Assembly (NCBI GenBank): GCA_002269645.1
Contig: NIVC01004547.1
Location: 1 to 42,378 of the forward strand
Direction of reading: 5' to 3'
DNA: 42,378 nt
From: Macrostomum lignano
Taxonomy: Eukaryota
Below, piece after piece: positions 1-39,080 of the stretch (position 1 is the stretch's first letter; the number at the start of each line of letters is the position of its first letter). The notes beneath the pieces are model-generated. The model was given only the letters and a program-made list of their open reading frames with translations, did not search any database and had not been told where the DNA came from. The translations under genes were made by a program, and so were the position numbers.

Positions 1-911
1 TGGGTCTGATTCAAAGTCTAACCAACTGCGGATGATGGGTTACGCTAAAGACGCTGGGGTCAAATGGCTGCGGTTGGAAATCCTGGCTTTTAACTCGCAA
101 GGCGATGGCTGCCGGTTCTCGAACATTTCATCTGTATGGCCCTCTTAGTCTCGACTTTTTTGTCACCAACGATCGTATGCTGCTGCCCTACACTGATATG
201 GTGGTTACGCTCACTCTGCAAAATTCGGGATTCGTTGTGGAGAATTCACGCCGAAGGGGTTGATGCAAAGTTGGTTCTTCAAAGTGCAAAATTACACGTT
301 CGTCGGGTAAAGGCTAACCCCCAACTGGCCTTGGAGATTGAAGAACAGCTGTCAACTCAGAATGCAGTCTACCCATCGAGCGCCTCGTTGTACACAACAC
401 CTCTGTCGCTGTAGGAGTTCGCGACGTGTCAATCAATAATATTTTCCCGGAGCAGAAGCCTAAACTTGTCATTATGGGAATGGTCAATAGTGCCGCATAT
501 AACCGGGTGGCCACCCATAATCCGTTCAATTTCGAGCCATTTGGGGCGGACAGTGTGGCCCTGTACAAGGACGGTGTCAGTCTGTGCGGTCAACCATTCA
601 CTCCAAGGTTCGCTGCCCAAAACTATGCTCGCGAATACGCCATGCTGTTTAAGAGCCTAGGAAAATGAATCGCGATTTGGACATTGACCTGTCATATTCG
701 GATTATCGCGCCGGTTACTGCTTATTTGCGTGGAATCTAATGCCCGACATGGAACTGGGTGGACATAGCATGCCTCGCGAGAGAGGGAACCTGACCCTAC
801 AATAAAGTTTTCTGCAGCCTACCTGCGGGATTAACGTTTTGGTGTTTGGTTACTTTGACAACGCGCGTGAAAATTACTAGAGGCCGCCAGCCCATTCTGG
901 ACTACGTATGA
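1..911 (+). CDS. Polinton major capsid protein (hexon-like), C-terminal part; frameshifted as given
   Basis: Joining frames gives ...GSRTFHLYGPLSLDFF...DRMLLPYTDMVVTL...KLVLQSAKLHVRRVKANPQLALEIEEQLSTQNAVYPIERLVV...SINNIFPEQKPKLVIMGMVNSAAY...NPFNFEPF...GYCLFAWNLMPD...GNLTLQ...GINVLVFGYFDN...RQPILDYV*. This follows the typical Polinton MCP motif order. Stop TGA at 909-911. Confidence 0.85.
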
Positions 912-1342
912 ACACGTTGGAAATTTTGGAACGTTTAAAACTACCTGTGGAAGTGCGCGTTTGCCCTCTTGACAGAATTCCTGCACCTGTTTACCCTGCT
1001 GCATACGTAATTAATTTTGACACGGGTAATCTGCCAGGCACCCACTGGGGACTGATTTGCCTACACGATGATAAGAGTGTGACATTTTTTGACCCCCTGT
1101 GTATTGAACCCGTGCCGGAATTGCTCTCGGCTTGGTTCTCGAAGCATGTACATTCACCTGCTGCTATGAATCGCCACCCTGTTCAACACCCTCTAAGTGT
1201 AGCGTGTGGGCTGCACGTGATTTTTGTGGCCGAAAAGCACTTTTTAGAGGGATTGTCGATTGAAAAGATTTTAAGGGAATGTTACTCTACAATCTGCTTA
1301 AATGATTTGATGGTTCGAAAACATGTTCTACAAATAAAATAG
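908..1342 (+). CDS. Adenain-like cysteine protease (virion maturation protease), 144 aa, intact ORF
   Basis: Motifs YVINFD-x5-GTHW, FFDP and VQHPLSVACG supply the His/Asp/Gln/Cys catalytic set of adenovirus/Polinton proteases. Confidence 0.92.
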   Translation: MNTLEILERLKLPVEVRVCPLDRIPAPVYPAAYVINFDTGNLPGTHWGLICLHDDKSVTFFDPLCIEPVPELLSAWFSKHVHSPAAMNRHPVQHPLSVACGLHVIFVAEKHFLEGLSIEKILRECYSTICLNDLMVRKHVLQIK

Positions 1343-1376
1343 TTTTTAATATTTGGAGTGTCAACTCGCCCTGAAA

Positions 1377-2005
1377 ATGTACCAAACAATTGATCCTGAC
1401 GCTCTAAAGTTTGCTCCAAATACTTCGGCGATTTTTGCTGGTGTTAACCAGAGCGGAAAAACAACTCTTGTTAAAGAATTGCTGCGAAACGAGTTTTTTC
1501 AGGACCCTAAGCCTGTTCGCGTTGATTGGTTTGGGCACTATCCAGACCCGGAACTGTTTGAATTACCGTACCCTGTCAATTTTCCTCGTCTACATTTAAC
1601 CCTGAAACCTATGTTCCCGCTCCGAATATTCTACTCGTTGTCGATGATCAAATGCAAGCCATGGAAAAAAAACGCTGCTTTTACCGCATTTTTCACTCGC
1701 AAAGTCAGCCATGTGGGATTCCGGCTTTGGTACCTTGTGCAAAACCTGTTTGCCAAGGGCAAGGAGCACCGCACTCAATCCCTTAACGCAAACTACCTTG
1801 TATTGTTCCGCAATGTACGGACGTTAGTACAGTCGCCCATATTGCAAAGCAGCTTGTCCCCGCTAACCCAAAAAGTTTTGTTCAAATGTACGAAGACGCC
1901 ACTAGGGAGCCCTACTCCTACCTGATTGTTAATTGCTTGCAGAACGCATCTGTTCGCTACTATGCTAATGTGTTGGGGCGCTACCCCGTAGTTTATGCTA
2001 AATAA
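1377..2005 (+). CDS. Polinton DNA-packaging ATPase (A32/FtsK-like); frameshifted as given
   Basis: ATG at 1377. Walker A GVNQSGKT. Walker B NILLVVDD lies in a second frame. Then FTRKVSH, YLVQNLF...RTQSLNANYLVLFRN, and the tail DVSTVAHIAKQL...MYEDATREPYSYLIVN...YPVVYAK* (TAA 2003-2005) in another frame. Confidence 0.9.
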
Positions 2006-2189
2006 AACACTGTTGGAGAGCTTTGCTCTGTTTGCCGGATGGCCTGAACCTGAAACAACTGAATTACGTGTTTTTTCTTTTCAATTCCTCTGCAGCCTGG
2101 GGGCTCTCTATCACTCACCGCCGGTCTGTCCCTCTACCACCCCGGCCTGGGGGAGCTCGCTGTCCCTCCGTGTGATTCACTGCCTCTCT

Positions 2190-2810
2190 GTCCCGCGCCT
2201 CCTGCCTGAGCTGCTCTCTCCGCGGGGTGTGTGACTCACACTCCCTCTTTGTCCACGCCGCGTGCTGCGACATGCAGGGCGGCTTCCTCTATCCCTTACT
2301 GCCTCCACGCACTCTCTGTCCCAGCACCCCGTGTCTCTCTGTACCCCTCACCCACCTCATACTGCTACAGGGGGCCGTCTGTTATCTGTCCCCTGCTACA
2401 GAGGGATGGCGGCTCTCCACGCACTCTCTGTCCCTCTCCTGATACAGGGGGCCGCCTGTTATCTGTCCCCAGCTACAGGGGATGGCCTCTCCGCGCACTA
2501 CCCCTCCTGCTACAGGGGCTGCTCTCTGTCCCCAGCTACAGGGCTGCATGCTCACTGTACAGGGCTGCGTCAGCATCGGGGGTTTCCTTCCTACACTAAC
2601 CGCGTGCACACAACATTGGTGGGAGGGGCGGGAATCCCCCCGCCGGATGTACACCCCGAGGGAGGCCCATGCGCTGAAGGTACACTCGCTGGACGCCCAG
2701 CCGGCCGGATGTACACTCGCGGGAGGCCCACCCCGCTGGAGGTACACTCGCTGGACGCCACCCCGCTGGAGGTACACCCCGGGGGAGGCGGTACACCCGA
2801 GGGAGCACCT
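2190..2810. repeat. Degenerate GC-rich repeat region (CTCTCTGTCCC...TACAGGGG and GGAGGTACACTCGCTGGACGCC-type units)
   Basis: Recurrent imperfect motifs are visible by eye; boundaries approximate. Confidence 0.45.
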
Positions 2811-3599
2811 TGCCGCGGTGCTAGAGGCCGACATCAGCCCGACGGACCTTCGCAAAATCAACGGATCTGCCAGTCCGTAGTAGTGGCGTCGTCTTCTAGA
2901 ACTAATGGAATCGGAGTCGTGTGCTCCTATCGGTTAATCTAGGATAACCAAAATCAATAACTCGATAATCCTCTAAGGGTATCGGAATCGGTCCGCAGAT
3001 CCTATCCAATCTCTTAGGAAAAGGGAGGCCTCAAACTCAATAGACTCAGTAAAAATCAACTGAACAGTAACGGCCGGCAATAAAATTGCTCTCAATAATC
3101 AAAATAACGAAGACTCAATCAAAGCTTACCAATTGGTATTTAATCTCTTCCTCAGAGATATAGCCTCGTTTGGCTGCTCTTGCAAAGCCCAAGATCTTTG
3201 GAGGCTGTTCCGAGTCTGAGATTTCAGCTCGAATTTTGCTTTTGTATTTATACACAATTTGTCTGCCTTGATTCGACCTTGAGCTCAGAACCGATTTTTT
3301 GATGAGTTCACGAAGGGAATATTATTATTTGACGGTGGGGTTTTTGAATAGAAAAGGGTGAGACTTTGGTCACATTCAGGTTAACATTTACCGTATTTGG
3401 AAGTTCTAAAAATAGATGTCGAGAACCGGTTTTTCGGACAATAGCATAGTCACTCGCTGTTTGCATGATATTACTGGTGTTACTAAAAATAGAGTATGAC
3501 GCATAGCTATTTTTAAATTTGTGTTCATAATTTTATCTTACTACTTCTAGTAGGCTACCATGTTTGGAGATCTCTACAAGGGTGGTCCGCCGGTCCGTC

Positions 3600-4914
3600 T
3601 TGCAGCGTGATCTTCCGTGGGGAAGAAAGTGGCTCGTCTTGTCGCCCGAAAGAACTGGATGAGCCGTGGGATGCTGTCGGGTTGGCAGACCTCGTCAGTG
3701 GACGGGTTCGGCCCGAGGTAGCGTAGCCGGTCTCTGGTAAAGAAAGGGCAGTGACAAACAAAGTGCTGAGCAAGCAGTGCCTGGCGAGGTAGCCATGGCC
3801 AGTAAAGGTCATGACAAGGGCTCGAATATCCTTCTGATTTTGGTTCAGAAGGACGTTTCTGAGCCTACGAGAGAGACACGGAACCACGGCACGAGATTGA
3901 TGACTGTCGAAGGCATAGGGACCAAGGGGGCAGGGCCAAAGAAAGAGCCAGAGCCGCCCCTCTTGGCGAGGGTCCCCGGAAAGCCTGCGTGCCCTGGGAT
4001 CCACTTCAGCCTGACAGTATTGCTACTGGCAGGAGGTTGAGCTGCCGGACGCAGTCGGCGACGGCCGGGAGTTCGTGTGGTGTGGCAAAGGGCCTGTAAG
4101 GCCGCTTGGCTTTCAGAGTGGATGACAAGTCTCTCCTCTCGTACCCTTGGCGTTCAGCTCTGCAGCGCAGGAGCTGATGGCAAGGACTTCGTTCTCGAAG
4201 ACTGTGGAGAGTCTACCAGTGTGCTGGGCATGCGTAAAAATGACGCGGCCGTTGATGATGATGCAGACCCCAAAGCCGGCGTGGCCGTCTTTGATGGATC
4301 CATCCGTGTAGCAATGGACCTCCTGGAAGTTCCAGTGGTCAGTGGCAGCATCCTTGAGGGGATGGTGACCTTGTAGCGCTGAAAGAGGTTGAGAGTGCGG
4401 CGTTCGCCGTCAGATAAGACGTGGAGCCCGCTCGCTGTCTCTCAAGTCTTTGAGGCAGAGGTCGGCGAGAGGCAGGAGCTTGCGCTTAGCCATGGCCCTT
4501 TGGGGCTGGATTCGAATGCCAGCGTCAATTAGACGGCGGGTAGTCTTAGCCGCTTCCCTGCGGACGAAGATGTCCAGCGGGGGAATGTTGAGGAAAGCGT
4601 TGTGGCCATCTTAGGGAGCAGACGGGGGGCGCTCATGATCATGCGGCATGCGCGCCCATGCGTTCTCCTGAGAGCCTCTAGACAGGTCTTTATCTGCAGG
4701 GCGCTAGCCCAGATCAGGCCGCCATACTAGATAGCGGGCCTAACCATTGCAGTGTAGATTCACCAGAGGCGCTTGGGGGTGAGCCCCCAGGTGGTGCCGA
4801 CAGCCCTGCGCAGTTGCGCGAGGACTACGAGGGCCTTTTTGGCTTTTGTTTGAACGTGGGGTGACCAGTTCAGCCTGTGCTCCAGGGTAATACCTAGACA
4901 TTTAGTCTGCTTGC
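3600..4914 (-). pseudogene. Retrotransposon ORF2, C-terminal part: RT thumb/connection plus RNase H
   Basis: KQTKCLGITLEHRLNWSPHV...RRAVGTTWGLTPKRLW*IYTAMVRPAI*YG, then the RNase H motifs HCYTDGS, TVFENEVLAI, IHSESQAAL, KWIPGHAG and TFTGHG. Stops at 4760-4762 and 4727-4729. Confidence 0.88.
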
Positions 4915-6711
4915 TTTAATGTGAGCATCTTACGTAAATTACCTTTAATTGTCATTAATTATTAATTAATGTTTTCGTTCTATTTTTGGATTTGTTTTCA
5001 TGGTGCTTTTTGTTAGTTAGAGTTTATTATTGCGAAACAACTAGACGCGTTCCAAAACCAGTTAAATCAGCCGAGGGCCGACAACCTGGTAGGAGCTTTC
5101 GGGTTTCCATTTTTCGGGTTCGGGGTAGAATCCGAACCCAAAGCTCTAACCCCGAACCCGGACCCAAAACCCGACCCAACCCGACCCCGAAATTCTACCC
5201 GAAAAAAACATCAATACTCAATCAGAATCAAAATAGTTGCACTATTTTTCGTATTCTCAACATTATTATTCGTATTAGTTGAGTCATGCTGACTGTCAAA
5301 AATTCAACTAAATTTTAGAAAATCACATTAATATAGTCCATTTTTCATTTTAACCAGAGACATGCTCAGAATTTGGAATCAGCAGATTCGTAAATAGAGG
5401 CACTGCGAACTATTAAGATTCTGTCAATAAATTATTTAATAATATGATTGCATAATAATAATATTAGTCAAGACATTCCTCAGCTCAGTATAATGCAAGC
5501 AATGCAAATGCACCAATATGGTCTTCTTTTGCTTGGAGAAGGCTATAATATTATATAAATTCATTTTTTTTCTAAACGAATTCTTGACGAAGCCTTAATT
5601 TATCATTTGTGTAAATTGTTGCGCATTATAAGGTAAGGTAGCATACTGGAATGATATTTAAGACGATTTAAAAAATTAAATATATGCGAAAAAACCTAGA
5701 AACACTCAGTTTACGCTTAATTTCGTTTCAACTCGTAAAAAATATAAAAAACCCGAAAACCCCGAACCCGGTACCAAAACCCGAACAACCGAAACCCGAA
5801 CCCGAATACACTACCCCGAACCCGACCTGAACGCCTACCCCGAACACCGAACCCGGTGTCAAAACCCGACTCTACCCGGCCTGAGAGCGCGCCGTGGGTT
5901 CAGTGCAATTTGGATATCGAGCGGTCAGCCAGACAGACATCCCGGTTCTTCTCCTTTTCGTCTGGTTGATCGTTTTCGTCTCCCGGCCGTTTTGCCATCT
6001 GCCGTGCTTTGAGGCGCTTTTATCGAGTCGAGCCCCGGCCCATATCTTGTTCCGCTGCCCGACCGCAGTAGCCTTGCCGGCGTAACAATCGCGACAACCA
6101 TGTTCAGAGTTTGTCGTCGGCAAGCGCGATATAGGTAGGAACTGTCGGTTTGACATAGTACGCGACCTCGATCCCGAGGGCCCCAGTGTTTCAATGAAAG
6201 GCATATCTGGTAGGATTTGGCGAGGGATTCGCTGAACCGTCAGGCCGTCAGTGTCCTCTTCTGAGAGTAGGACCTTGGGATTAGGCCAGGGGTGTGTAGG
6301 GAGCTTTTCCGTTGGTCCTGTGTTCTGGTTTCGCCTTTTCACTTCTTCCAGCATTGAGATCCACTCGCCGGAGTGCGTTGTTAATTTCATTTGTCAAGTG
6401 TTCAATTGCAAATTGCGTTATCTAATCTGTGTTAAAATTTGGAGTCAATCAAATATTAAGAATTCAAGTCTCAGTCAGTCTTTATGTCAGATTAGGATCA
6501 TCAATCTAAATCCATCTGGAATTGCTTTCTACCGCGTAATTCATTTACTTGTACCGTATCTGCGACTATTAGAGAAAGCTTGGTAGGACTCACCTACCCG
6601 CGATAGGCAATAGGAATTAATAGTTTTAAAATCTCCAATCGCTCCAGTAGGTTTGTCTAGGGCCTAAACTACGGCTCGTATTTGCCGTATCGCAATGTAT
6701 CCAATATTCCA
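4915..6711. other. 1.8-kb insertion splitting the RT coding sequence, flanked by a TTGC duplication
   Basis: Removing 4915-6715 rejoins minus-strand GREIPFC|KQTKCLGITLE in frame. TTGC is present at 4911-4914 and 6712-6715. Confidence 0.8.
5100..5883. repeat. Two clusters of AACCCG/CTACCCCGAACCCG motifs around an AT-rich core; probable non-autonomous DNA transposon relic
   Basis: Clusters at about 5100-5195 (both orientations) and 5750-5883, the latter ending ...TACCCGGCCTG. They resemble subterminal transposase-binding repeats; a matching left TIR was not found. Confidence 0.4.
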
Positions 6712-8480
6712 TTGCAGAAGGGGATTTCCCTTCCGTAAAGCGTGAGCGGCCGAATCTGCCACTTGGTCCTGCTGGTGAACATGATCGCTGCGGTCTTAGT
6801 CTCAGAGAGCCTTAAACCACAGCGGTCCGCCCATTGCTCAGCGGCGTAGATGAAGTTCTGAAGAAGGTCCCTGAGGGTATCAGGGGACGGACCAGATGCC
6901 ACCGCGGTGACATCGTCCGCATATCCAACTTTCAGAATGGGGTCAGGCCGAACATCCCGGAGGAGCTCATCGATGACCATATTCCAGAGAACTGGAGACA
7001 GCACCATACCTTGCGGGCTACCTTTGCAGACGATGACCGTCCTCTGGTAGTCCAGCAGACTGGCGGTGGCCGTGCGATGGCTGATCATGTACATGATCCA
7101 TCTGGTGAGATGTGAGTGCGTTTGCCTCTCACAAAGAGCTCTTCGGAACGCCTCGAAGAGGATGTTATCGAAGGCGCCAATGATGTCCAGGAAGATCCCC
7201 AGAGCGAAGCCGCAACCAAGCACGGCCTTCTCAAGTTATCGACCAGGACGTACAGCGCGATTTCAGTGGAGCGACCCGCCCGAAAGACGTGCTGGTTCTC
7301 GCTGGAAGGCTTGTTCTTCAGCTCTACGGAGAGAAGGCGCCACAGCACCAGTCTCTCCATCAGCTTGACCAGGGAGGAGGTCAGGCTGATCGGTCTGAAG
7401 GATTTGATAGAATGGCAGTCCGGGCGGCCTGGCTTAGGGATAAAAATCACCTTTGCCTCGGTCCATGCCTGCGGAACATAACGAAGCGTGATGCACGCCC
7501 GAAAAAGGCTGCAAAGTTTACGCAGGAAGCCTGGGCATTTAACCGCCTCTCTTAGAATGGCAGGTACGATGCCGTCGGACCCTGGGGCTTTGAAAGGTTT
7601 GAAGGAGTTAGCCACTCTCACGATGCGGTCCGTGATGATAGAGGCAGCCAGCGCGTGACCTCCCTCCGAGTGATCCGGAGTGGTCGGGCTAGCTGGCTCG
7701 TTGGGGAAAAACGCAGTGAGCATTTCATCAAGCGTTTCCCCTGGGTTGTCCGTGGACGTACCGTTGGTGCGTTTGACTGAGGAAAGCTTAGAAATTTTGT
7801 CCAGCGTAAGCGCTTTCGCAATTCTGGAGGTGGGGCGTGAGCCCTCTAGCTCCTCGCAGTATTGTCGCCATTTTTGAGCCTTTGCATTCCTAACCTGCCT
7901 TTTTCAACTCATGGATTGCTTCATGATAGGCGGTTTGGTCCGCTGGGCTCTTAGTTTTAGTTGCTCTGCGGTGGAGTCTCTTAGCTCTGCGACGGAGGCC
8001 AGATTAATGCCGGTGCTGCCCCAGTGAGTATGGTGGGCGTTGATGTCGCCGGCAACCATAAGCTCGTAGTTTTTGGCACAGCAGAGCTCCACCAGCGTAG
8101 CGAGGGCTCTGGGGACGACCGCAGAATCGCCTGTTAGGTAGACCGAGGCTATGAGGGTGGTCTTCCCAGGAAGGAGGTCCTCAGATTGGATGACGCAGAT
8201 GTCCCTGTTAGACAGGTCCGATCTGAGCCACGCACTGAACATGTTGACCGAAAAGATGCAAGCTCTGGGAGGCTGGTTGGCCTCGCGAAGGTATGTATAA
8301 AAACAGTTGTAGCTGGCAGGGGCGTTTTGAGGCTTACCTCTAAGAGTCCAGGGTTCCTGGACGAAGATGAGCCCTGGCGTGTCGAGCCCGGCGTGACGCA
8401 TAAGGTTGACCGAGGCTGCAACGCAGTGTTGCAGATTAATCTGCTAGCAATGGATTCCCTGGCTGCTGATCATTATCATG
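6712..8480 (-). pseudogene. Retrotransposon ORF2, N-terminal part: AP endonuclease (truncated) and reverse transcriptase
   Basis: APE motifs QINLQH, FVQEPW, ASVYL, AGDINAHHTHWGS. RT motifs KAPGSDGI, RPISLTS, QHVFRAGRST, FLDIIGAFD, GSPQGMVLSPVLWN and YADD. Confidence 0.93.
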
Positions 8481-8677
8481 CAGTTGGGGAATCGGTGAGC
8501 AGGTCATCCTCCTCCTTTTCAGGGGTGGTTGGCCCTCAGATCTCCATGGGAGTTTCAGCGTCCTCGGCAGTTAGGGTGGCTGCGGAGTCCTCCGCGGGTA
8601 TGAGCCCAGCATGGACGTTACCGTCGCCTCCCCTACGTGCTTCGGTGCTTCACTGCCCGTCCCCTCTGCCTCGTCGG

Positions 8678-9773
8678 TCAGGTCGATGCGGGTGGTGCCA
8701 GCCTCCTGGTGAGTCGCAGACTCGAACAGTCGGTCGGCGCCTTCCCGCCGACAGCCCGGCCTTCTGGCTGTTGGGGTGGAGCACGAGAAGCGCGGGCCTG
8801 GATCAGACCGGACCTCCGGGTGCTCCTGGCGGGTCTGCGATTGCGATATCCGGTTTTAGCAGCGCGAACTGCCTTACTGGGCTTGGGGTCGGCCGTTTGC
8901 CTCAGCTTCTTTGCCGGAAGAGCCTGGGCCCCAGTTCCGGTTTCGGAAACCTCGGCATGCTTGGCTTCATCAGCTTTCCGCTCCTTGCAACGGAGGATGG
9001 TCAGCTGAGTCAGACGAAGGTGGATTGTGGACTTAGGCGGCAGGCGCTTAGCCCAGTCGTCGGAGAGCCCAAGAATCACCGTGGCCCCCTTCTCCTTGCG
9101 GGAAGTGGCGTGGTGTAGTATCCCATTGACCTCAAGGCCAGGATGCAGCTTTAGCAGGATTTGCCTAAGCTGATCCCCGGACTTAATGGCACTGCCGGCC
9201 GGGATCCAGACGCAAAAGCGCTGGGTCTTTTGTCGCTCGCCCTCGCTGGCGAAGACAAGCTTGCCGAGCTTCTTGAGCCTGTTCAACTTTGGCAGAAGCT
9301 CGCGTAGACTGCGGCTGCTCTCCTCCGAGTTGCACCAGATGAAGATGCAGCCGTCGGTCTTGGTAGATTTGACCACGCTCACGGGCGTAGTTGGTGGCGG
9401 CGGTTCCCGAAGGCCCGGCCGCGCTGGTAGCAGGTTTACTGGGTGGCTCATCAGCGGGGGTTGTATCCTGGGGGCAGGGGTTGCTGTGGCTCCTTTCGGC
9501 CCAACGGCAGCCTCGCCCTCCCTAGGTTCCCCCTCCGCCGGTGGCCGGCCCGCAGTATCCCGCAGTCGCCGTCGCCGCTCGTTGCGGCGTTGGTTGCGGG
9601 CACGTCGGGCCTCTGCTGAGGGCCCGGGTGCGCGTGCGGGCATGTCACCGGCCGAGCCGGTGGCAAGCCCATCTGCCCCCGGTGGGGCGGCGCTGGTGCT
9701 AGAGTCACCGGCCGGAGTTGCCGGGGCCCCGGCTTCAGCGGGAGTTTTATGTTTTAGAGGCGGAGAACGCCAT
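8678..9773 (-). CDS. Retrotransposon ORF1 (nucleic-acid chaperone; basic N-terminus; LOA-type ORF1 domain suspected)
   Basis: Long open frame directly upstream of ORF2, with an Arg-rich RRARNQRRNERRRR segment. RFCVWIP...LRQILLKLHPGL resembles the DUF4780-type ORF1 of LOA elements (from memory). The likely ATG at 9773 needs a 1-base correction in an A4 run. Confidence 0.7.
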
Positions 9774-10303
9774 AGCTGAAAGCGGGAAGGAGTGAGCTGA
9801 GTCACAAAGGAAAGAGGAAAGAAGAAAAAGGAAAAGGAAGGACCGCTAGCGACCGGACAACCCCCCGGCCTTCCAGCCCATCGGCACAGTCAAACACCTT
9901 AGGCACGTTAAGCAGTACCACGGCCTGCAGGCTGGCGAGCCAGACCCGCATACCCAAGTTCGGCCGAAGCCACTCGATGCGTCGCCAGCGTCGGAGCCCA
10001 GTCAGTCCAGCAGCCCCAGGGTCTGCCTTGAACACACGCGGGGACGAGTACCCCTGGGTCCTGGGTACCCCTACTACTTGCGAGACAGCGTGGGGGAGGG
10101 TCTGCGGCTGCCAGCGGCAAATTGAGGGTGCAGACCTCCCACCAGCCTTAACCTGCGGATAGATAGGGGATAGGGGCAGGCGTGAAGCGTCGCAGACCAT
10201 AGCCCATAGGCCTGGTCTGTCTCATATTTCACAGGCGTGCTGAATACACCTTCGCATGCAATATATCCGCTACATTTACTTTAGTAATGGCGATACGCGA
10301 GAT

Positions 10304-11179: not shown

Positions 11180-14100
11180 ATGCGAGCCCGACTCCGCACG
11201 GTGACCGGTGCCGCTCAGGAGGTGGCTGGCATCACGAGAACTCACGGCTTGCTGCACATATTCCTGTCCAGAAGCACAGCTAGACGGCTCTTCTGGCTGC
11301 TTCTGTTCGTAGCTGCCCTGATCGGCTGCACCGTCCACCTGGCCAAGTTGGTGCAGAAGTTCACCGAGCACTCCGTTGAGTCGCAGCTGAAGCTGAGGAG
11401 CGAACAAGCCCAGTTTCCCGAGGTCACAATCTGCAACTTCAAGCCCCTTTCTGCAAGCGTAGGTCCTAATATTCTTGTAAGCAAATACTTTCCGACTTTC
11501 TGGGGCAATTTCGTCAACTGGTTCAAAGAGGACACCCCGAAGCGCCCGCAAGAATCGGATGAAAGCTATGAAAGCCGACTTGAGACGGTGTGCAAGAAGG
11601 TCCTAGACGTGATGTGGGTGTCGGACGACACCAGAGACATCTCCCACCTCGACGAGACCATGCTGCTGCGATGCCGCTACAACAACGAGCCATGCAGTCA
11701 CAAAAACTTTTCGCTTGTCCAGACGAGCCGGTTCTGGAACTGCTACACGTTCCACCCGGACCCAAAGCAGTCGTCCAGTGGTTCTGGGGGCAGAGGAGCC
11801 AAGTTGGACATGGTTCTCTTCACCGATGGATACATTGGCTCTTCTAGTTTTACCTACCATCGCAAATTTTCTAATGCTGTTTCAAAACTAGTATGTCTTG
11901 GTCGATTGGCTTTCAATATGATAGCTATAAGCCGGCTGCTGAACAACAACCAACCTCAGTCGAATGGATTGCGAATTTTCTTTCACGAAGCAAAAAGCTA
12001 CCCGTTGACTGGTACGTATTATTTAAAAAATAGATGTTTTGCCTAGTAAGGTTTTACTTTGCTTAGAGGGTTTATAATTGTCTTGATTTAGAACTGCAAT
12101 ACTTTCCAAATGCTCGAAAACTTCGAAGGTTCTATAAAAATGAACGATTCATCGAGCAAAAGATTCCAAATGCTCACTTTAGCTTTTATCGCTAAAACCT
12201 TTTACCCATGCTAAACTGCAGACGCCGAGTTCGTAGACGTGGCCTCAGCCAGAAGCACCTCCATCAAACTCAGGCCGATCCACAACCGGCTCGTATCGAC
12301 GCCGAGTCGCAGGTGTTCCGAGCCTCCTTTAGAAACCATCAACTACGTCAGATACTTCTCCAACGCCTCGACGAACGTTGTTAGCAAGGAGTACTTCAAA
12401 TCCATTTCAGATTTTGTATTCGAGGCACAGCAGAGCATCCTGCAAAGCAACTGCGGCTGCTACTCGCACCTGCTTCCGTTCTCGGTGAACACGAGCGACC
12501 TGTGTTACTTCGCTCCACCGCAGAATTAGATCACCCCATCAGATGCTGTGCTCAAAAGAATCAGCTGCCATGACCTCTGGTTTGAACACGCACAGAGGCG
12601 AGGTCAGGAGCTGGTGAAAGAGTTTCAGCACCGAATGCGGTGCGATTTTACCCAGCAACGGCCTTGGCAGCAGAGCCGCAGCTGGCCCCCGTTAAGCGCT
12701 ATTCAAGAGATCTCAGAAGAACTGATAGCGCCGCTGTTCAGACATGGAATGAAGTTCAGGCGGAGCAGGGATGGAAAATAACAGCACATGATAAAAAAAA
12801 TTCTACTTTTTTCCAGAAAGGAACATGTATTGTTGCATCTTCTTGATCAGGACTACTGGAATTGCACGGCTTGGTTCAGTTATAATAGAACTATTGATAA
12901 TACTAACACTTCCACACTCAACGAGCTTTTGGAAGAATACCTCGAGTCAGCACCGTACTGCCTTCAGCGTCGCTTATTGTCCAAAAACCTGGCAGCAGTC
13001 AGCATCAACTTGCAGAGTCCTGCGGCGGACGCTTACGAAGAGAAGTACAAATACCACTGGACTGAGGCTCTGTCGGAGGTGAGAGCTGCATTTCTGTTGC
13101 AATATTCCCGCAGGCTGCAGGTGACCAGACCCGCCTAGACCCACTAATTTTCATGCGAATTTTAAAAACGGCCTTAGCCCCTCCGTCCCGCCCTGGTTCC
13201 CTTAGCGACACTGAGCTGCTCCGCTCTGCCAATTCTTTTACCTCGTAAAATGCTAGCTAGCCCCATTACAAAGCTGCTTACATGTAGAAAGTATGTTGAG
13301 CAAACTGAGCTGCGCGAGCCTCAGAGCCGATTGGGTCGCGAGTCCTCCCAGTAAGCTACCGTCTTCCCATGGGTTCGCACCCGCTCCAACTGGCGTGAGC
13401 TACCGTCTTCCCATGGGTTCTCACCCGCTCCAACTGGCATGAGCTACCGTCTTCCCATGGGTTCTCACCCGCTCCAACTGGCATGAGCTACCGTCTTCCC
13501 ATGGGTTCTCACCCGCTCCAACTGGCATGAGCTACCGTCTTCCCATGGGTTCTCACCCGCTCCAACTGGCATGAGCTACCGTCTTCCCATGGGTTCTCAC
13601 CCGCTCCAACTGGCATGAGCTACCGTCTTCCCATGGGTTCTCACCCGCTCCAACTGGCATGAGCTACCGTCTTCCCATGGGTTCTCACCCGCTCCAACTG
13701 GCATGAGCTACCGTCTTCCCATGGGTTCTCACCCGCTCCAACTGGCATGAGCTACCGTCTTCCCATGGGTTCTCACCCGCTCCAACTGGCATGAGCTACC
13801 GTCTTCCCATGGGTTCTCACCCGCTCCAACTGGCATGAGCTACCGTCTTCCCATGGGTTCTCACCCGCTCCAATTGGCATGAGCTACCGTCTTCCCATGG
13901 GTTCTCACCCGTTCCAATTGGCATGAGCTACCATCGGGTGGCCATCTGCTTGCAGCTTACTCCTGAATGACTACGGAGTGACCGAACGCTTTGCAAGGTG
14001 CCGCCTCTTTGTCTCGGTGCTCAGTGCCCAGCTAACCAGTGCCCGAGCCCCACAGCAACACGGCAGCAGGAAGCTGCAGAGACCCCAAACCAGACATCTG

Positions 14101-14267
14101 CTCAAATTCGAGGACTTCTCCTCGAAATCCCGCAGATCGGTGGAGCTCTGGGACTTTGGCTCGGCATCAGCGTCGTGAGCACCTTCGAGCTGCTTGAGTT
14201 CATCTATATTCTGGTGCAGAGGTGCAGGAGAAACGATAGCGACTCGGATAGCGAAGAAGAGTCCTGA
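11180..14267 (+). pseudogene. DEG/ENaC (amiloride-sensitive/ASIC/FaNaC-like) channel subunit with two in-frame stops
   Basis: Exons approx. 11180-12011, 12222-13078 and 14136-14267, with GT-AG introns in phase. Motifs TRTHG, RRLFW (TM1), FPEVTICN, CYTF, CGC, SWP and ALSE|IGGALGLWLGISV (TM2). TAG at 12527-12529 and TAA at 12779-12781 interrupt one continuous frame. Confidence 0.9.
13353..13932. repeat. 44-bp minisatellite (GAGCTACCGTCTTCCCATGGGTTCTCACCCGCTCCAACTGGCAT), about 13 copies, in the last ENaC intron
   Basis: Near-identical tandem units with no spacers. Confidence 0.96.
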
Positions 14268-14876
14268 GTTCGAATCAGCAGCTAGCTCTCTGCATTGCGA
14301 TTCTGATCGTTCACTAGCTTTATTTTCACCGGCTGGTTTCTGACTTTACAGCGGCATTGCAAATGTCGTGCTGAGTTCGATGCCTTCAGCTCATCCTCGA
14401 TTTCATTTCAGAAGCGAAGATTGATAGAGAACTTTAGACGCATCGCTTCATCACTGCTCAATCTGTGAGAAATTCGTACCGCTCTGTTGACTGTTTCTAG
14501 CAATTCTTGATAAATCTCTGTATTTTACTGTCACAGCATGAAAAATCCCTGTAACTTACTGTAATTCACTGCAGTGATTTTTGTTCGAGTCCCGTCTGCA
14601 GCCTCTCTCAGGTGGGCACTGATGCAGCGCTCAGCTCTTCTGTGTCTTTTCAATATGGGGTCTAGTTTTTTTTAATATTAACAAGTGTGCAATAATTTTG
14701 ACTTTTTTTGTACCTCAAACTGCGAACCGATGTGTTGCGATCGCCAAAATACACCAACTCACTGCTAAATACTTTGCTACATCCTTTGTTTTGAATATTA
14801 AAAAAATTATACACCATTTTATTTTACAATTTTTAAACAAACTCGAACTCAATACAAACTGCTAAGACCTTCAATC

Positions 14877-15372: not shown

Positions 15373-15760
15373 TTCTATCCAGCAACAACACTTCGTGCTC
15401 ACCAATGCTAGACCTTATCAATCTTATCTGAGGTCACTGGGGAAACTATGTAGCTACCGGTAAGGCCATCAATTTCCACTTAGGCAAAATGGAATTCCCT
15501 ATTGGAAAATCTGGATGTTACAAATTTCACATCTTGAAATTGGTGAGTTGTTGAGAAATGAAATAAAAAAATGGCGAGTTCAAGTGTATAGTTTTCAATC
15601 AGTCAATCAATCACTAGTCAAGTGTTTGAGAAAATCGGATCAAGAGCACTCAATCAGAGACTTCATGACGATTTCTAATTTGTCGCCAATGATAAAAAGC
15701 GTGAAATATAAGCAGTGGCAGGGGGCCGCTTTCCAAACTGCAAATCTTCGCCGCATCGAG

Positions 15761-16786
15761 ATGGCCGAACCGCATCAGCAGATGCTGCTGTTCCTGCTTC
15801 TCGGGAGCCTGCTGCTTGTTCACGCTGAATGCCGCTCCGCCATAGCCAAATACGCTGTTGTCAGAGCTAGCCAGTGCCTGAACAAGTCAAAGTCGGTGTG
15901 GCAGATCAGCTCCGGGCGCTCCTCTTCAATGCTCGACTGCTTCATGTCGAGTCGGTCGTTCCGTCTCGGCAGCGTCGGCGTGGTGCAGCGGAACAAGCGA
16001 GACGCCTCGTGCACGCTGTTCCGCTTCGGTGAGGTCTGCCGCCTGCTCAACTTGAGCTCGATGACATCGACTGCCGGAGTGGCCCCTGAGAGCATCTGCG
16101 AGACCGTGGTGGATTCGGAGTACGACGTGATCGCTGCGAACGAGCACTTCAGCGCTGTGTGGGTCGGAGACAGGGGACCGGCGCTGGAGAACCTGGTGTG
16201 CAGCTCCGAGGGACAGAACAACCCCGTGAAGTCGCTCAATGTGACCTGGACGAGTGAGGGCGCTCGCATGGACGGAGTCTCGTCTCGGCTGTGGGTAAAC
16301 GACCCCACAGGTCTGGACTTCACGGCGTCCTACACCTGGGTGCCGCACCTGAAGAGAACTCCCGGAAGGCGGAGCTACATGTCATGGGGCACTTTTGACA
16401 GCGCCAGCAAAGAGGAAATTCAATTTTTTGAGAAGAAATCGCTAAATCTATGCTTAAAGTCAATTCCACCAACGAAAATTGTCTCCGGATCTCTCCTGCC
16501 CGCCAACCCTGACCGATTCTTCATTGTCGGTGTGGTCCGGGACACGGCCGCAGGCAGGATAAAATTCTTTGTCGATTCGGCTTTTCTGCGCGAGGAAACA
16601 AGTTTTGCTGCTTCAAATACGACTGCAAACAGTGGGAAGAGTTTCTGTTTGAAGATGGGCTGGCAGACTGTTTCTTCAGGCCGGAGCCTGTTGCTCAACG
16701 GAGTCATCCGGGCTGTCGCCGTGACAAGTCGGGTTCTGACTGAGGATCAGATCCGAATGCTTTTCCATGAGCAACTCGAATACTGA
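15761..16786 (+). CDS. Secreted protein, 341 aa, intronless: signal peptide, Cys-containing N-terminal module and C-terminal LamG/concanavalin A-like jelly-roll domain
   Basis: Hydrophobic leader MLLFLLLGSLLLVHA. LamG-like pattern MDGVSSRL...FTASYTWV...FIVGVVRD...IKFFVD...LNGVIRAVAVTSRVLTEDQI. N-glycosylation sequons NKS, NLS, NVT and NTT. Confidence 0.72.
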   Translation: MAEPHQQMLLFLLLGSLLLVHAECRSAIAKYAVVRASQCLNKSKSVWQISSGRSSSMLDCFMSSRSFRLGSVGVVQRNKRDASCTLFRFGEVCRLLNLSSMTSTAGVAPESICETVVDSEYDVIAANEHFSAVWVGDRGPALENLVCSSEGQNNPVKSLNVTWTSEGARMDGVSSRLWVNDPTGLDFTASYTWVPHLKRTPGRRSYMSWGTFDSASKEEIQFFEKKSLNLCLKSIPPTKIVSGSLLPANPDRFFIVGVVRDTAAGRIKFFVDSAFLREETSFAASNTTANSGKSFCLKMGWQTVSSGRSLLLNGVIRAVAVTSRVLTEDQIRMLFHEQLEY

Positions 16787-22338: not shown

Positions 22339-22823
22339 GTGACACTTAGAAAACAAAGTTTGCTTTTCAAAGTTACAGTACTTTGTATAATTTTAATCTT
22401 TAACGATCAAACGTTTTTAAAGTGATCTGCTAGCTTGAGAAACCTGACCAGTTACAATTTTAATGTGAATATTCAAGGTGAATATTTAGTCCCAATGCTG
22501 ATAAGACACTGCAGTACTCGTAGTTACAATGGCTGACCACTCGCTCATGCAATTCTTTTTTAGGGTCAAAAATTGACCTTAGACGTTAGACTACGACGCA
22601 GTGCTCATGTATATGCACAGAGAACCTGATGACTGATATGCTCGCTTGACTGAGACAGTGAAAGTTTAGCATTTATAAGTTTCAGTCAGTTTAATGCCCG
22701 GTCGCGTCAATCGATTATAGCCACTGATTTGAAAGCAATTTCGAATATACATGTACATGTAAATTTGCGCACTACTCCACGTTTTTAACAGTTTTTAGCA
22801 TCTTAGCTACTGAGGGTCTGCAT

Positions 22824-23670
22824 GGGAGGCTGGCCCAGCAACTGAGAATCTAGGAGGCTGGCCCAGCAACTGAGGATCTGGGAGGCTGGCCCAGCAACTG
22901 AGGATCTGGGAGGCTGGCCCAGCAGCTGATGAGGATCTGGGAGGCTGGCCCAGCAACTGAGGATCTGGGAGGCTGGCCCAGCAACTGAGAATCTGGGAGG
23001 CTGGCCCAGCAACTGAGGATCTGGGAGGCTGGCCCAGCAACTGAGGATCTGGGAGGCTGATCCAGCAGCTAGCTGATAAGGATCTGGGAGGCTGGCCCAG
23101 TAACTGAGGATCTGGGAGGCTGGCCCAGCAACTGAGGATCTGGGAGGCTGGCCCAGTAACTGATGAGCATCTGGGAGGCTGGCCCAGCAACTTAGGATCT
23201 GGGAGGCTGGCCCAGCAACTGAGGATCTGGGAGGCTGGCCCAGCAACTGAGGATCTGAGAGGCTGGCCCAGCAACTGACGATCTGAGAGGATGGCCCAGC
23301 AACTGAGGATCTGGGAGGCTGGCCCAGCAGCTGAGGATCTGGGAGGCTGGCCCGGCAACTGGGGACTGAGGATCTGGGAGGTTGGCCCAGCAACCGATGA
23401 TCTGGGAGGCTGGCCCAGCAACTGAGGATCTGGGAGGCTGGCTAAGCAACTGAGGCTCTGGGAGGCTGGCCCAGCAGCTGATGAGGATCTGCGAGGCTGG
23501 CCCAGCAACTGAGGATCTGGGGGGCTGGCCCAGCAACTGAGGATCTGGGGGGCTGGCCCAGCAACTGAGGATCTGGGAGGCTGGCCCAGCAACTGATGAG
23601 GATCTGCGAGGCTGGCCAAGCAACTGGGAATCTGGGAGGCTGGCCCAGCAACTGAGGATCTGGGAGGCTG
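22824..23670. repeat. 28-bp minisatellite (GGGAGGCTGGCCCAGCAACTGAGGATCT) with 31-bp variants, about 30 copies
   Basis: Tandem array of the same family as 31569-31868, in the opposite orientation. Confidence 0.96.
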
Positions 23671-24135
23671 GTGACCTAAACAATACAAATAAAACAAAGC
23701 AGTGAACCAAGGGGCACTATGGATAAATGAAGAGAACAATTTTATTAATTTTGACATAAAATTGAATCAGTTGGCGGGCCACAGCTTAGTGAGCTGTCAT
23801 CGGGATAAGGGCTCAAACCGGATGTTTGATTAATAATAATCGGCATGAATAAAAACAACAAAGGTGGCTTAAATTAAAAGTACAAAAAGTGAGTTACACT
23901 ATACTTACTGGTTATCAAAGTCGAAGGCTATTTGAAAGTATTTTTAAGAATCATGAAAAACAGGTGCATATAAGTTATATCGGGAGAGATGATGTCAATG
24001 AACTAGCGAAGATATAAAAAAATTACAAAAAAAGAGAAATTTCTGGAATAATAATTATTTTAGGTTACGATTCGCTCAACTTGCTCAATGTTTATTGAAT
24101 CTGTCAGATTGTAAAGTGACAGCCTTTCTTTCAAT

Positions 24136-31500: not shown

Positions 31501-32053
31501 ATGCTCATCATCGCCATCGCTTTCACCGCTTTGGCTGCGTTGGACCTTCTGCTGCTGGTTCAGGTGAGTCCTCAGTTGCTGGGCCAGCCTCCCAAATCCT
31601 CATCAGTTGCTGGGCCGGCCTTCCAGATCCTCAGTCGCTGTGCCAGCCTCCCAGATCCTCCGTTGCTGGGCCGGCCTTCCAGATCCTCAGTCGCTGTGCC
31701 AGCCTCCCAGATCCTCCGTTGCTGGGCCGGCCTCCCAGATCCTCAGTTGCTGGGCCAGCCTCCCAAATCCTCATCAGTTGCTGGGCCAGCCTCCCAGATC
31801 TCCAGTTGCTGGGCCAGCCTCCCAGATCCTCAGTTGCTGGGCCAGCCTCCCAGATCCTCATCAGTTGCCGTGCCGCCCGCAGGTGCACCGCATTTACCGC
31901 AGCACAGGCGCCAGCTTTGCCAAAGCTCGCCAGGAGTTCAGCCAGGGCGTGCTGACCAACGAGGCAGTCAGGGGCGCCGCTGCAGATGCTGCAACAGCCA
32001 CCGCCAGGTCTGCCTTCACGGGTGGGGGCAGCGGCAGCGGAGGTCGGTACTAA
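28516..32053 (+). CDS. SCAMP: Secretory carrier-associated membrane protein (SCAMP), complete, 5 exons
   Basis: Exons 28516-28581, 29696-30002, 30414-30714, 31344-31563 and 31883-32053; GT-AG introns in phase. NPF repeats, coiled coil ELEKRQRELDAKARELERRE, NNWPPLP, E-peptide CWFRPLYRAFKSDSSFNF, four TM segments and VHRIYRSTGASFAKARQEF. Confidence 0.96.
30035..30385. repeat. 25-bp minisatellite (CACTCGGGACATTCAGATCCCAAAT) with 28-bp variants, in SCAMP intron 2
   Basis: About 13 units. Confidence 0.93.
30775..31292. repeat. 20-bp minisatellite (GACAGGCAGACACAATTAGA) in SCAMP intron 3
   Basis: About 25 units. Confidence 0.96.
31569..31868. repeat. 28-bp minisatellite (CCTCAGTTGCTGGGCCAGCCTCCCAGAT) filling SCAMP intron 4
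   Basis: About 10 units; reverse complement of the 22824-23670 unit. Confidence 0.94.
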
Positions 32054-34569: not shown

Positions 34570-37500
34570 ATGGCCATGGAAATGGAAGAGTTCTTCGAGG
34601 CCAGTAATCAGCCTCAAGGCTGCGGTGGGAACTCCGAACAGTTCCTCAGCAGGCTGAGCAGTCAGCTACGACCTTATTTGGATGCCGCGGATGCCCTGAA
34701 AGCAGACAAGAGCAGCAGTGCTGTGAATTACCCCAGCATCGTTGTGATCGGAGACCAGTCTGAGGGCAAGTCGACGGTGCTGGAGGCGATATCCGGGGTG
34801 GAGCTGCCTAAAGCCACCAGTCTGTGCACCAGGTGTCCCATCCAGCTGCGTCTGAGGGAAGGCGACGAGAAGATTGAGATCAGGTAAGACCAAGATGTTC
34901 TGTGTGTGTGTCAGTGCCGAGTCTAAATTAAAAAATTGCTGCATGTATATGATAACTCCAGTTACGGGCAAGGCAGCAGCCTTCATCCGAAGAAAATTTC
35001 GCGTAACGACATTGCCCGCGAAATATCTATCTCCCAGGAGCACATTGTGTCATCTAGCGGGCTGGAGATCACTGACGAGACAATTTCTGTGCTCATCCAG
35101 ACGCCTGACGGGTTCAACCTAACTCTGATTGACCTGCCAGGCATTAACAGGTGATTTTAGAACCACCGGGTCATCTTCTGGACTTCGGATCTGTATTTGA
35201 TCTTGTATTTTTCCACATGTATTCTCAGCAACATCGAAAAGTCGCCATTACAAAAGATTCCATCTGTGCTTGCCACTTCTAAAGTTGCAGGTAAAGTCTG
35301 TCAATCTTTGCGAGTGACGCAACTCAGCTACGCCGCGGCAGACTTGAGTTGAGGAATGAAGTGGGGGGAGCGGTGTGCGAGGGTTGGACGGATTAAGGCT
35401 ACCCCGATCAGTTTTCTAGTATCTTTTATTTCAGAATAGTCTAAGAGAAATTTCTCACTGGCGCATAGAGTGGCCACTTTTCAATGTTGCTGCGTATATT
35501 CTGTTCTATTTTTTGTAAGACCCTGCTCAACCCAACTCAAATCAACTCAAGCCTACTCAACCACCCAATCCCACTCTAACCAACACAACCCAACTCAACC
35601 CCTGTCAACCCAACTTTACTAAATCAATTAAATTCAGGTTCTAACTATAGCTAACCCTAATTTTTCAATATACAAATAACCCTACGTGTAAACATGACAG
35701 AATTTGATAGATAATTTCCAGATGATTTAAGATAAGCTGTCACTTTTACTCCGAAAGCTTGAAACGAAAATACGAAAAATACGAAACGAAACTTGGGAAA
35801 ATACGGGTAAAATATTTGCAGGGACACGAACGACATCGAAGAACAAACCGTGAAAATCATCGAGCGCTACATAGAAAGCGAACAGACAATCATTACCGTG
35901 GTGTTCAAATGCACCACTGACGTTAAAGCAGTCAAGGCTTTCCAGCTCGCTAAGAAGTTCGACCCCGAGGGCAAGCGGACCATTGGTGTGATCAGTCACT
36001 GCGACACGCTGAGTGAGAACTGGGAGGAAGCGATTAGCAAGCTGGTGTCTTCACAATCAGGAGTCTTTATTCCTGTCGCTTGCCGAGACTACATTTCAGG
36101 CGGGACTTCCGCAGAGGAGAATGTGCTGTCTCAGCGTGCAGAGCCTGAAACATTCAGTCCCGATTTCTCACGCCAATCCCTGTATTTGGAGCCAAATAGC
36201 TCCCGTTAGGACGAAAACCTGGCCATTAGCATTTTGGGATCTCTATGGGGAGAAATGGGATAAATGAAAGGAATAGGAATTTTAAACGAAATAAGTAATC
36301 AAAAGTGTTCCAGATCTTGACAAGTTGAGAAAGCATACAAAAGTTTTTGCGGGTGGAAACGCTAAAAGTACGAGTTATACAGCTGTACAGCTGTGCTCTC
36401 AAAACTTATTTCACAAAGAATTCTTTTTTGTATAGCGCTAAATGGGGTTTTGCCATGGACGAACTCTTTTAGAAAATTACACAATGGAAATAGAAACAAC
36501 TTAAACCTTTGAAGCGATACGCTCGTAAGTTGCTTTTGTTACCTTCTCTTTTTAGCGAAAACGAACCGAACATCAAAACCAGCTGAATGACTTGCTCGAA
36601 GGAGAGCCGACAGAGGCGGCCGACTCCAGGAAAGTAGCCTGCGCTCTGCTCAAAAGATTTGCTCATGAGTTTGAGGCGCAGGTGAAAGAAGAGCACAGAA
36701 CGGAGAAAAATGTTTTATTTTCCGAATGTGAAAGAAACTTGGACGAATTCGAGCAATCCATTCGACAACTGACGGAGCCGAACGAGGACAATGATGAACG
36801 TGAGTTTTCTGTGGACGAGCTTCCATTGTTTTTTTCGCATCATCAATCACGCTATCTTTGATAAAATGAACATTTTGACAAATTACAACTGCAAATAACT
36901 TTGTTTCTTTAATCAGAAACATCAACTTAGTTTCTAAGGTTAACTGACCTGACTTACTCTCAAAGGTAATTCTTTATTGGTTATAGTATAACAGTTATAC
37001 TGATCGAGATTCAATTGGAGACCGTGCAACATTCCGACGTACTCGAATTCGATGGAAATCGCTGGTAAATTAGCATTTTTAAATTAAACCGGCGGATAAC
37101 ACTGGCTAAAAGTCAGTGTAATGTACAAATACCCCGTTTACCATGCCGCGACGTTGATACATGTTGTAGTCTTCGATTTCGTGTCAGCCGACGTCGCTGA
37201 GGTCACCGGAAGGAGGGTGAGGTTTGCGCTGATTAGAGTTGATGGTGAAGCGTGCAGCTGAGGAAAGAATTAATATTGAAAGACCAATCAGAAAGGTGTG
37301 AGAGGCAGAGTAAGAGATAAGAAGACCCGAATATCGAACCCCAGAAACCAAGAGTGGCCGGACAGTAATCAGAGAGACGCGGAAGAGAGCAGATGAGTTT
37401 AGGAGATGATTTCGAGAGTCGCGACAAACGGAAAAGGGCCGAAAAACGTCCAGCCGCAGGAGTGACATCGCATGGATAGTAGGACGTACATGTAAATACT

Positions 37501-39080
37501 CTGCGACTGGCTCCATGAAGATTTTCCAGAAGTGTTTTCTTGAGAAGCTAAACTTTTTTTGCTTTCTGTTTTGACAGAAACCTTTTGACAATTTTTTTTG
37601 AGAAGGCCGTCATAGCGAGAAACAACCAAATCTTTAAACGCATTTAGCTCCAGTCATTGTCGATCTCTGGATGCCATTCAATGCCGCTCCCTGTAATATT
37701 CAAGCACACATGAACAGCAGTGCACAACTGAGCTATTTTGTCTGCTCCCGGGCCAATTTACAGTGCTGAAGCAAGTCAAGGAGGAGTTCAAAGACCAGCG
37801 CGGTTGCGAGTTCAAACAGGTGGCCAATGTATTTCCGGTACTGCGCCGCATCGTAAAAAATCTGGTCAATGATAAATTCTGGCCATTGACAATGGGTGTA
37901 TTCGAGAAAATTTGCACCGCAGTGACTGACTACATGGATCAACTGGCCGACGTGAATTTTGGTAAATATCCGCCCTTCAGAGACTACATGAAGGAGAGGC
38001 TGACTAAAAAACAACTACGATCAAGACGGATGCCCGCAAGTGGCTCGAAATTGTCTTGAAAATGGAGGCGACCTGCGTTCAGACCCGGAACCGACAGTTT
38101 AATCGAGTTGGGTGAGAGAGTTTTTACTACTTTCAACATTCAATTTTTAGTTTATGATACATGTAAATGTCATTGGCATTGCCAAAATTTAACGAAACTC
38201 TTTGTCAACGTGTGAATATTTTTACGGTAGAACAGAAGCATAAAACAGCTTATGTATGAAATTATTGAAAATCCTATAGTACTTTGCATAGGCTTCAAAT
38301 ACTTGAATTTGATCATTAATGGAAGGCATCAGGTGATCTGTTTTAAATTCAATAGTACGAACAGTCAGTACGAACTCTACAATCATGACGCTCTTGTGAC
38401 TGTACAATCGTACTACATTATAACGTTGTATCGTCGTGTAACCTGACTTAAATAGCCGTCTACTGTAACAAATAGACGGATATCACCGCAGGACATAACA
38501 TTTTTTGTTTAGCTTAAGTACACTTCGTATGTCATTTGGCCGTCGGTGTAATGTAAAATAGTGATTTTCCATTGCCTGCGATTTATTACTCTAGATAGTT
38601 GCCCTGAGAATTACGAATTTATACTCGTACTACAGCGCAAACCACATAATAAAACCTCTCGATCGTAGTCACAATCCACCTGCACCGCGAGAAAGCTTCT
38701 CCAGTGAAGACCTCCCGGATCATGAAGAAGATGGAGAGCACAGCGCCGCTGATGACATTCCACAGTCGTTTAGACAGAGCATGGACGAAAATGAGCTATT
38801 AATCTATGTACTTCTAACAAAGTACCTGCTCATTCTCGCTGATCAAACTGTTGACAATGTGGCCAAAACAATCCAGTACCAGTTAAGCTACAAGCTGGCG
38901 GAAGAGATGGACTCGATTCACGCGCTCCTGCCCGAGTCCGACACTCTGCATGGGTTGATGAAAAATCCGGAAAAAGAGGATAAGCTACGCAAAGTCAGAC
39001 AACAACTCAAGTTTTGGAGCAATCTGGATGACAAACTAACGCAGCAGACGTCCGAATACAAGAGGGAATCTCGAGCTTGA
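34570..39080 (+). CDS. Mx: Mx/dynamin-like large GTPase (G domain, stalk, GED), 6 exons; one unresolved junction and one 1-bp frameshift, so possibly a pseudogene
   Basis: Exons 34570-34883, 34962-35150, 35822-about 36200, 36556-36799, 37764-38111 and 38669-39080. Motifs [51 protein letters not shown], stalk RGCEF...KMEATCVQT and [23 protein letters not shown]. No PH or proline-rich domain, so Mx-like rather than classical dynamin. Confidence 0.88.

Follow-up and report, generated by a model that had tools for sequence, protein, structure and literature searches.

The window analysed here, a stretch of 42,378 nucleotides, carries in its first 2,005 positions virus-like genes whose reading frames are broken in many places. 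The question that this locus raises is whether those breaks are decay in a dead copy of the element, or errors in the sequence of a young one whose genes are still whole.

Gene content and family of the left-edge module

Three-frame reading of positions 1-2100, together with protein searches, revealed three collinear genes on the plus strand within 1-2005, encoding a capsid protein (MCP), a protease and an ATPase. The MCP gene (2..911, +), of the double-jelly-roll, Maverick PY / F54H12.2 type, is cut in its 5' part by the window edge, with the 3' 304 of 427 codons (residues 124-427, the last 71%) being present and the first 123 of 427 lying to the left of the window. Its stop overlaps the start of an open frame of 144 aa (908..1342, +), identified by homology as an adenain-type (CE clan) maturation protease, and an A32/FtsK-type genome-packaging ATPase, of 209 codons in relatives, follows (1377..2005, +). 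Thus, the MCP is incomplete in the window, while the protease and ATPase genes are both complete in extent. The protease shows His, Asp, Gln and Cys motifs (1037-1048, 1082-1093, 1181-1192 and 1202-1210, all +), these four residues, which we take to be the catalytic ones, being unchanged in 7 of 7 aligned rows. Walker A (1440-1463), Walker B (1631-1648) and further conserved motifs (1737-1814) were located in the ATPase on the same strand, all motifs of both enzymes being therefore present in the window. Two AATAAA sites, at the 3' end of the protease gene (1333..1338, +) and overlapping the ATPase stop (2001-2006, +), are possible polyadenylation signals.

The sequence-only reading had seen in these genes the morphogenesis module of a Polinton/adintovirus, a claim borne out by the homology of MCP, protease and ATPase. 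Judged from its genes alone, the element is the capsid-protease-ATPase end of an integrated Polinton/Maverick of the adintovirus type. The double-jelly-roll MCP of Maverick PY type that characterizes Polintons was recognized through the fold of P0010, an intact relative with 80% identity on which the fold was tested in place of the window MCP, and through the alignment between both. The P0010 model (pLDDT 94) matches the MCPs of PBCV-1, iridovirus, Sputnik and mavirus (E 7e-18 to 4e-15). P0010 also scored 0.98 to DJR-like/F54H12.2 clusters, mostly eukaryotic, its nearest feature clusters being animal F54H12.2-like, and a profile of the three intact MCPs retrieved 1,190 representatives at E<=1e-30. 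An adenain-like protease with its catalytic residues, likewise expected of a Polinton, was also found, the model of the window protease (pLDDT 77) matching NEDP1 and adenovirus proteinase (E 2e-4 to 9e-4). The A32/FtsK ATPase is the third such feature, its family call running through distant relatives (P0018-P0022, 31-36% identity) that score on Pox_A32 (E 9e-6 to 3e-4, two of them above the cut-off). Pfam searches of the window fragments returned no informative match for MCP or protease and weak P-loop matches for the ATPase, and 0 of 3 intact MCP relatives gave a Pfam match.

Membership in the virophages or the nucleocytoviruses was considered and rejected, the MCP fold match being at 10-14% identity only. 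Sputnik, mavirus, PBCV-1 and adenovirus proteinase show the same DJR capsid or CE-clan protease folds as found here, but the 10-20% identity of virophages, nucleocytoviruses and adenovirus proteinase to the module reflects common ancestry, not membership. Animal Polintons are classed in the family Eupolintoviridae (Orthopolintovirales). In the accessible text of PMC8502044, animal Polintons/Mavericks, there called adintoviruses, show the same MCP, protease and ATPase types, encoded in compact, intronless genes on the same strand. The distant fused model P0132 likewise has an MCP adjoining the protease. In the window, the ATPase gene comes after those of MCP and protease on the same strand; vertebrate Mavericks, in contrast, carry it in the polymerase module, according to the part of PMC8097293 consulted. 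The Alpha or Beta class cannot be set from the window, in which no polymerase is present.

Close relatives and lineage

Searches with the protease ORF matched 7 of 11 candidates, six of them full-length (68-73% identity), while the 97-aa open piece of MCP matched 4 of 78, namely three intact 427-aa proteins and P0008. The ATPase matched 11 of 30 candidates, four of which are intact 209-aa proteins. In a frameshift-aware alignment of the window to intact relatives, the MCP is 79-80% identical to the intact P0009-P0011 over residues 124-427, and 89% identical to P0008 (UniRef A0A1I8I4M6, labelled beta-ureidopropionase of Macrostomum lignano); the ATPase is 81-84% identical to the intact 209-aa P0012-P0015, and the protease reaches 69-74% with its relatives. 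For all three proteins, the intact relatives (P0001-P0006 and P0009-P0015, from public contigs) have open frames and are 69-84% identical to the window. The close intact relatives sit on short public contigs of 0.5-3.9 kb, and equal values for the longest contig (3,422 for P0004, P0010 and P0012; 3,773 for P0001, P0011 and P0016) suggest that these proteins belong to the same three-gene block. P0016, an environmental ATPase relative, is 5'-truncated and has an unrelated N-terminus, as if it carried a frame break near the same gene region.

The MCP phylogeny was built as a quick tree of 41 rows, comprising the window MCP (with X at the breaks), P0008, P0009-11 and 36 of the 37 representatives P0023-P0059, with P0044 left out for its length. 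The window and P0008 are sisters (support 100) in a five-member clade (100), and the nearest representative outside this clade is 41-43% identical. On the evidence of the MCP, Macrostomum or a relative is the probable host. P0008 is a sister MCP, yet it belongs to another copy, showing 11% amino-acid divergence from the window and no gaps across the 304 compared columns. As read from its gene model, P0008 marks a second integrated copy of the lineage. Its residues 660-910, upstream of the MCP, resemble rve-chromo integrases (score 0.93), with no Pfam match, and a stretch also upstream of the MCP may, by eye, resemble a penton. The 1,804-aa model of P0008 is chimeric, with about 1,470 residues ending in the integrase-like part and the Polinton MCP, then a host CN_hydrolase; its name, beta-ureidopropionase, derives from the fused host domain and is a misannotation.

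Orthopolintovirales insertions in rhabditophoran flatworms are already on record (10.1101/2025.04.19.649669, in the text available). The accessible text of PMC8502044 and of its supplement gave no match to Macrostomum or flatworm, and a literature search with thin coverage of subscription journals found no description of Macrostomum Polintons. This tight lineage with a Macrostomum-labelled member is apparently new and undescribed. A scan of prokaryotic genome contigs for relatives confirmed 0 of 23 pattern matches.

Frame breaks as sequence error or as decay

Pairwise alignments to intact relatives located 11 firm breaks, eight in MCP (in 4 of 4 alignments) and three in ATPase (4 of 4). Those of MCP lie near 56-59, 91, 243-246, 376, 663, 803, 820 and 863 (intervals 55-61, 88-93, 242-250, 372-378, 659-668, 799-805, 813-833, the latter with one or two breaks, and 862-867, all +), and those of ATPase near 1584, 1670 and 1818 (intervals 1583-1586, 1665-1677 and 1817-1823, +). 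With a lower penalty the break at 820 splits in two and a protease pair near 1289 and 1300 is added, giving up to 14. Net losses of sequence make up 8 of the 11 firm breaks. Internal stop codons are absent from every aligned frame of the module, and the pairwise alignments of MCP and ATPase (8 of 8) are free of codon-sized gaps. That the breaks might be real and functional, through programmed frameshifting or editing, agrees with the position of one of them in an A8 run, but a single capsid gene with 8-9 shifts, some in each direction, together with close relatives that are all open (4 of 4 MCP, 4 of 4 full-length ATPase), make this most improbable.

The sequence-only reading had placed every break that it traced in a homopolymer run and had based on this, and on the lack of nonsense codons, its view of a young copy with breaks that are probably errors. 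The runs it named exist within ~1 nt of the places given (G 56-59, T 88-91, C 372-374, A 662-665, A 801-806, CC 818-819, A8 1665-1672 and GG 1819-1820), each at or beside an aligned frame break, so its entries are real, but it missed three firm breaks near 243-250, 862-867 and 1583-1586. All 11 breaks indeed touch a run of at least 2 (2 nt slack), but random sites do so in 10.2 of 11 cases (P=0.42), and runs of at least 3 occur at 7 of 11 breaks versus 5.4 expected (P=0.26; P=0.25-0.45 over settings). Runs of at least 4 are enriched, being found at 5 of 11 breaks versus 1.5-2.2 expected (P=0.012-0.049, 1-3 nt slack), at 7 of 11 with 4 nt slack (P=0.006), and at 5 of 14 in the 14-break set (P=0.04-0.09). 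Within 3 nt of three of the breaks (near 243-250, 862-867 and 1818), no run exceeds a length of 2. The enrichment of runs of at least 4 does not separate error from decay, because runs and single-base losses are favoured among natural indels as well; in the portion of 10.1101/529214 at hand, natural small indels are described as mostly single-base (67%), deletion-biased (~3 to 1) and run-associated. The homopolymer location of a break, taken alone, is thus no test of error.

The statement that no nonsense codon is present stands for internal stops, but it is weak evidence, since decay would produce 0.9-1.6 stops at 3-5 substitutions per indel (11 firm breaks), with a probability of zero stops of 0.21-0.39; at 10 substitutions per indel this probability is 0.04 (11 breaks). 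The protease, reported as unbroken, has an open frame but is three codons shorter than 6 of 6 relatives, lacking two codons near 938-941 and one near 1288-1301, where 6 of 6 relatives are gap-free; the latter is possibly a hidden pair of breaks. Zero stops, unremarkable at 3-5 substitutions per indel, and a protease three codons short are both compatible with a dead but recent copy, in which the breaks would be mostly real slippage-type indels in a host of low substitution-to-indel ratio, perhaps with a few errors among them. We consider this possible, if rather unlikely, the absence of large indels from MCP and ATPase speaking against it.

Amino-acid damage bears more directly on this alternative. 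In MCP columns on which all remaining rows agree, the window displays 7 private changes in 205, and the intact relatives 7, 12, 9 and 9 in 205-210, the terminal branch of the window MCP in the quick tree being 0.055 versus 0.07 for its sister. Intact relatives therefore equal the window in private MCP changes, which leaves little room for decay. With 5 substitutions per indel, decay giving 8-9 MCP breaks would add ~18-20 private changes (P<=0.002). At the C. elegans substitution-to-indel ratio of ~2.7 (10.1101/529214, from the text available), 10-11 added changes are expected; with no background the observed MCP count is not rejected (P=0.13-0.22), a point for a dead copy, while with a background of 3.5-7 P falls to 0.002-0.04. 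Decay at the C. elegans mutation ratio is accordingly disfavoured (P 0.002-0.22).

Two further observations count towards a dead copy. One private radical MCP change, at 504..506 (+), affects the single column that shows no variation in a folding alignment of 70 of 153 MCP relatives, with fusions and partials left out. Two short single-base runs meet at this codon, and the change is a genuine lesion or else a paired miscall. In addition, the ATPase shows 11 private changes in 164, four of them radical, versus 1-6 in relatives, although the window may be more distant from the four ATPase relatives than these are from one another; the decay test on ATPase (P 0.1-1.0) does not discriminate.

The position of the breaks along the window was also evaluated against its other sequences. 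Downstream of the module lies a decayed non-LTR retrotransposon (3555..9889, -), recognized by RVT_1 and Exo_endo_phos matches and made up of ORF1, endonuclease, RT and a probable RNase H. Its RT end is split by a ~1.8 kb insertion (~4913-6715), these limits and the RNase H being set by eye, as was a large deletion near 8000. The contrast that had been drawn with this retroelement holds in so far as it carries in-frame stops (TGA 4760-4762 and TAG 4727-4729, -), but by eye it also has ~13 frame switches. Its frames were read against known motifs, and switches in both the retroelement and the host exons (11-17 kb) were counted by eye, without homologue alignments. On these counts, the module has 11 breaks in 1,965 coding bp versus 0 frame switches in ~2,720 bp of host exons (Fisher P=7e-5), and the left part of the split retroelement (3.6-4.9 kb) has ~8 switches in 1.35 kb versus ~5 in 3.2 kb of the right part (6.7-9.9 kb; P=0.027). 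Break density thus climbs leftwards also in an unrelated element, by eye, which again goes against a dead copy. As a control, four tandem arrays at 10.3-17.7 kb showed 2 events in 1,844 bp (P=0.023); the two arrays outside this test carry 6 more, and all six arrays together give 8 events in 2,693 bp, with P=0.08-0.17 for 11 breaks and 0.02-0.05 for 14. The protease, with 0 net breaks versus ~3 expected at its neighbours' rate (P=0.03-0.045), argues against uniform error, unless its hidden pair of breaks is genuine.

Error is favoured because the MCP is free of excess private changes and break density falls away from the left edge. Thus, a young copy whose breaks are probably errors, the earlier claim, is upheld by amino-acid and position evidence and not by the homopolymer and no-nonsense arguments offered for it; we consider it likely, and the capsid and packaging genes look recently functional. 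In the full explanation, to which we give nearly the same credence, the copy would have inserted recently, and most of its 11-14 breaks would have arisen in base calling or consensus building, in a thinly supported left-edge stretch, the assembly probably stopping within this repeat. In that case the actual genes would be whole, or almost whole. By analogy with related viruses, the MCP would form double-jelly-roll trimers that build an icosahedral shell with penton, the ATPase would package a linear dsDNA genome, the cysteine protease would mature the particle, and the element would be integrated by an rve-chromo integrase and copied by a protein-primed polymerase. Young elements can take on a fossil look through frame breaks at the edge of a sequence.

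Extent of the element and neighbouring sequence

Within the window, neither terminal repeats nor other Polinton genes were found. A Pfam scan of 30 window ORF stretches gave no polymerase match, tblastn with P0008 detected no rve integrase, and penton (the minor capsid protein) is absent from the window. Since penton, integrase, polymerase, both terminal repeats and the 5' part of MCP are missing from the window, virion competence cannot be judged. Maverick ends are described, in the part of PMC8097293 available, as terminal inverted repeats with AG..CT ends and a 6-bp target-site duplication. No right-end ACTACT motif occurs on the plus strand between 2005 and 3539, the sole nearby one, at 3540, falling at the end of a retroelement ORF, and no target-site duplication is visible. 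The same source calls a Maverick intact when all core ORFs are open and terminal repeats and target-site duplication are present; as written, that definition does not cover a window with three genes only, MCP and ATPase being broken.

Between the module and the retroelement, 2006..2900 (no strand assigned) is a GC-rich, internally repetitive stretch, with degenerate repeats at 2100-2560 and a 31-nt array at 2628-2789, that may be the subterminal region of the element. Its two long ORFs have no Pfam match, tblastn with 12 query proteins gave no match to it, and it has no second copy in the window. Rfam at gathering thresholds yielded 0 matches.

The lack of a right terminal motif and the retroelement ~1.5 kb downstream suit a dead copy, as does the report, in the available text of PMC8097293, that 96% of vertebrate Maverick loci are degraded. 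The lack of terminal motif and of target-site duplication would also fit a Polinton stretch that is not integrated here and was joined chimerically to a host contig at a repeat, the reads of a different genomic copy, or of free viral DNA, giving mixed templates and a noisy consensus. The location of the stretch at the very edge of the window, followed by repetitive DNA, and the short public contigs on which close intact relatives are found point the same way. Nonetheless, a chimera is improbable: the sister copy is fused in its gene model to a host nitrilase-family gene (CN_hydrolase), implying that the lineage does integrate, and GC content, at 45-49%, is like that of host DNA in the window.

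Returning to the young copy with errors, its boldest form would place the module at the margin of a flatworm adintovirus that is complete and was active recently, with all breaks being errors, more than one young copy present and the lineage existing also as free virus, a proposal that we regard as doubtful. If true, the circulation of the lineage as free virus would account for 80%-identical intact relatives on short public contigs, and a laboratory flatworm would be a tractable host in which to seek natural virions of an animal Polinton, which would be the first. As far as the accessible text of PMC8097293 and PMC10748475 goes, no such virions had been seen when these papers appeared, which makes young copies in animals that can be cultured a useful point of departure. 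Intact Mavericks themselves are not rare, 134 being given for 17 vertebrate species in the part of PMC8097293 consulted.

Some other features of the window deserve mention. Within the insertion nested in the retroelement, CCGAACCCG-rich direct and inverted repeats at 5092-5190 and 5744-5881, ~650 bp apart, possibly represent a MITE-like or other non-autonomous element. A degenerin/ASC sodium-channel gene (11185-14270, +; Pfam E 1.6e-29) has an in-frame TAG at 12527-12529 and a 44-nt array at 13354-13932 within its span, and is either a pseudogene or unusually spliced. At 15760-16786 (+), a single open frame of ~340 codons has a hydrophobic N-terminus and a weak laminin-G/concanavalin-like match (E 0.06). 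An intron-containing dynamin/Mx-like GTPase gene, with Dynamin_N and GED matches, extends over 34570-39080 (+); by eye it seems to have an in-frame stop near 37695 and a frame switch at an A6 run (38006-38011), neither of which found confirmation in searches (Pfam and PDB for the frame switch). The window contains more than 10 distinct tandem arrays of 20-44 nt, and one 28-nt minisatellite occurs in it twice, inverted and ~8 kb apart, at 22823-23671 and 31569-31868.
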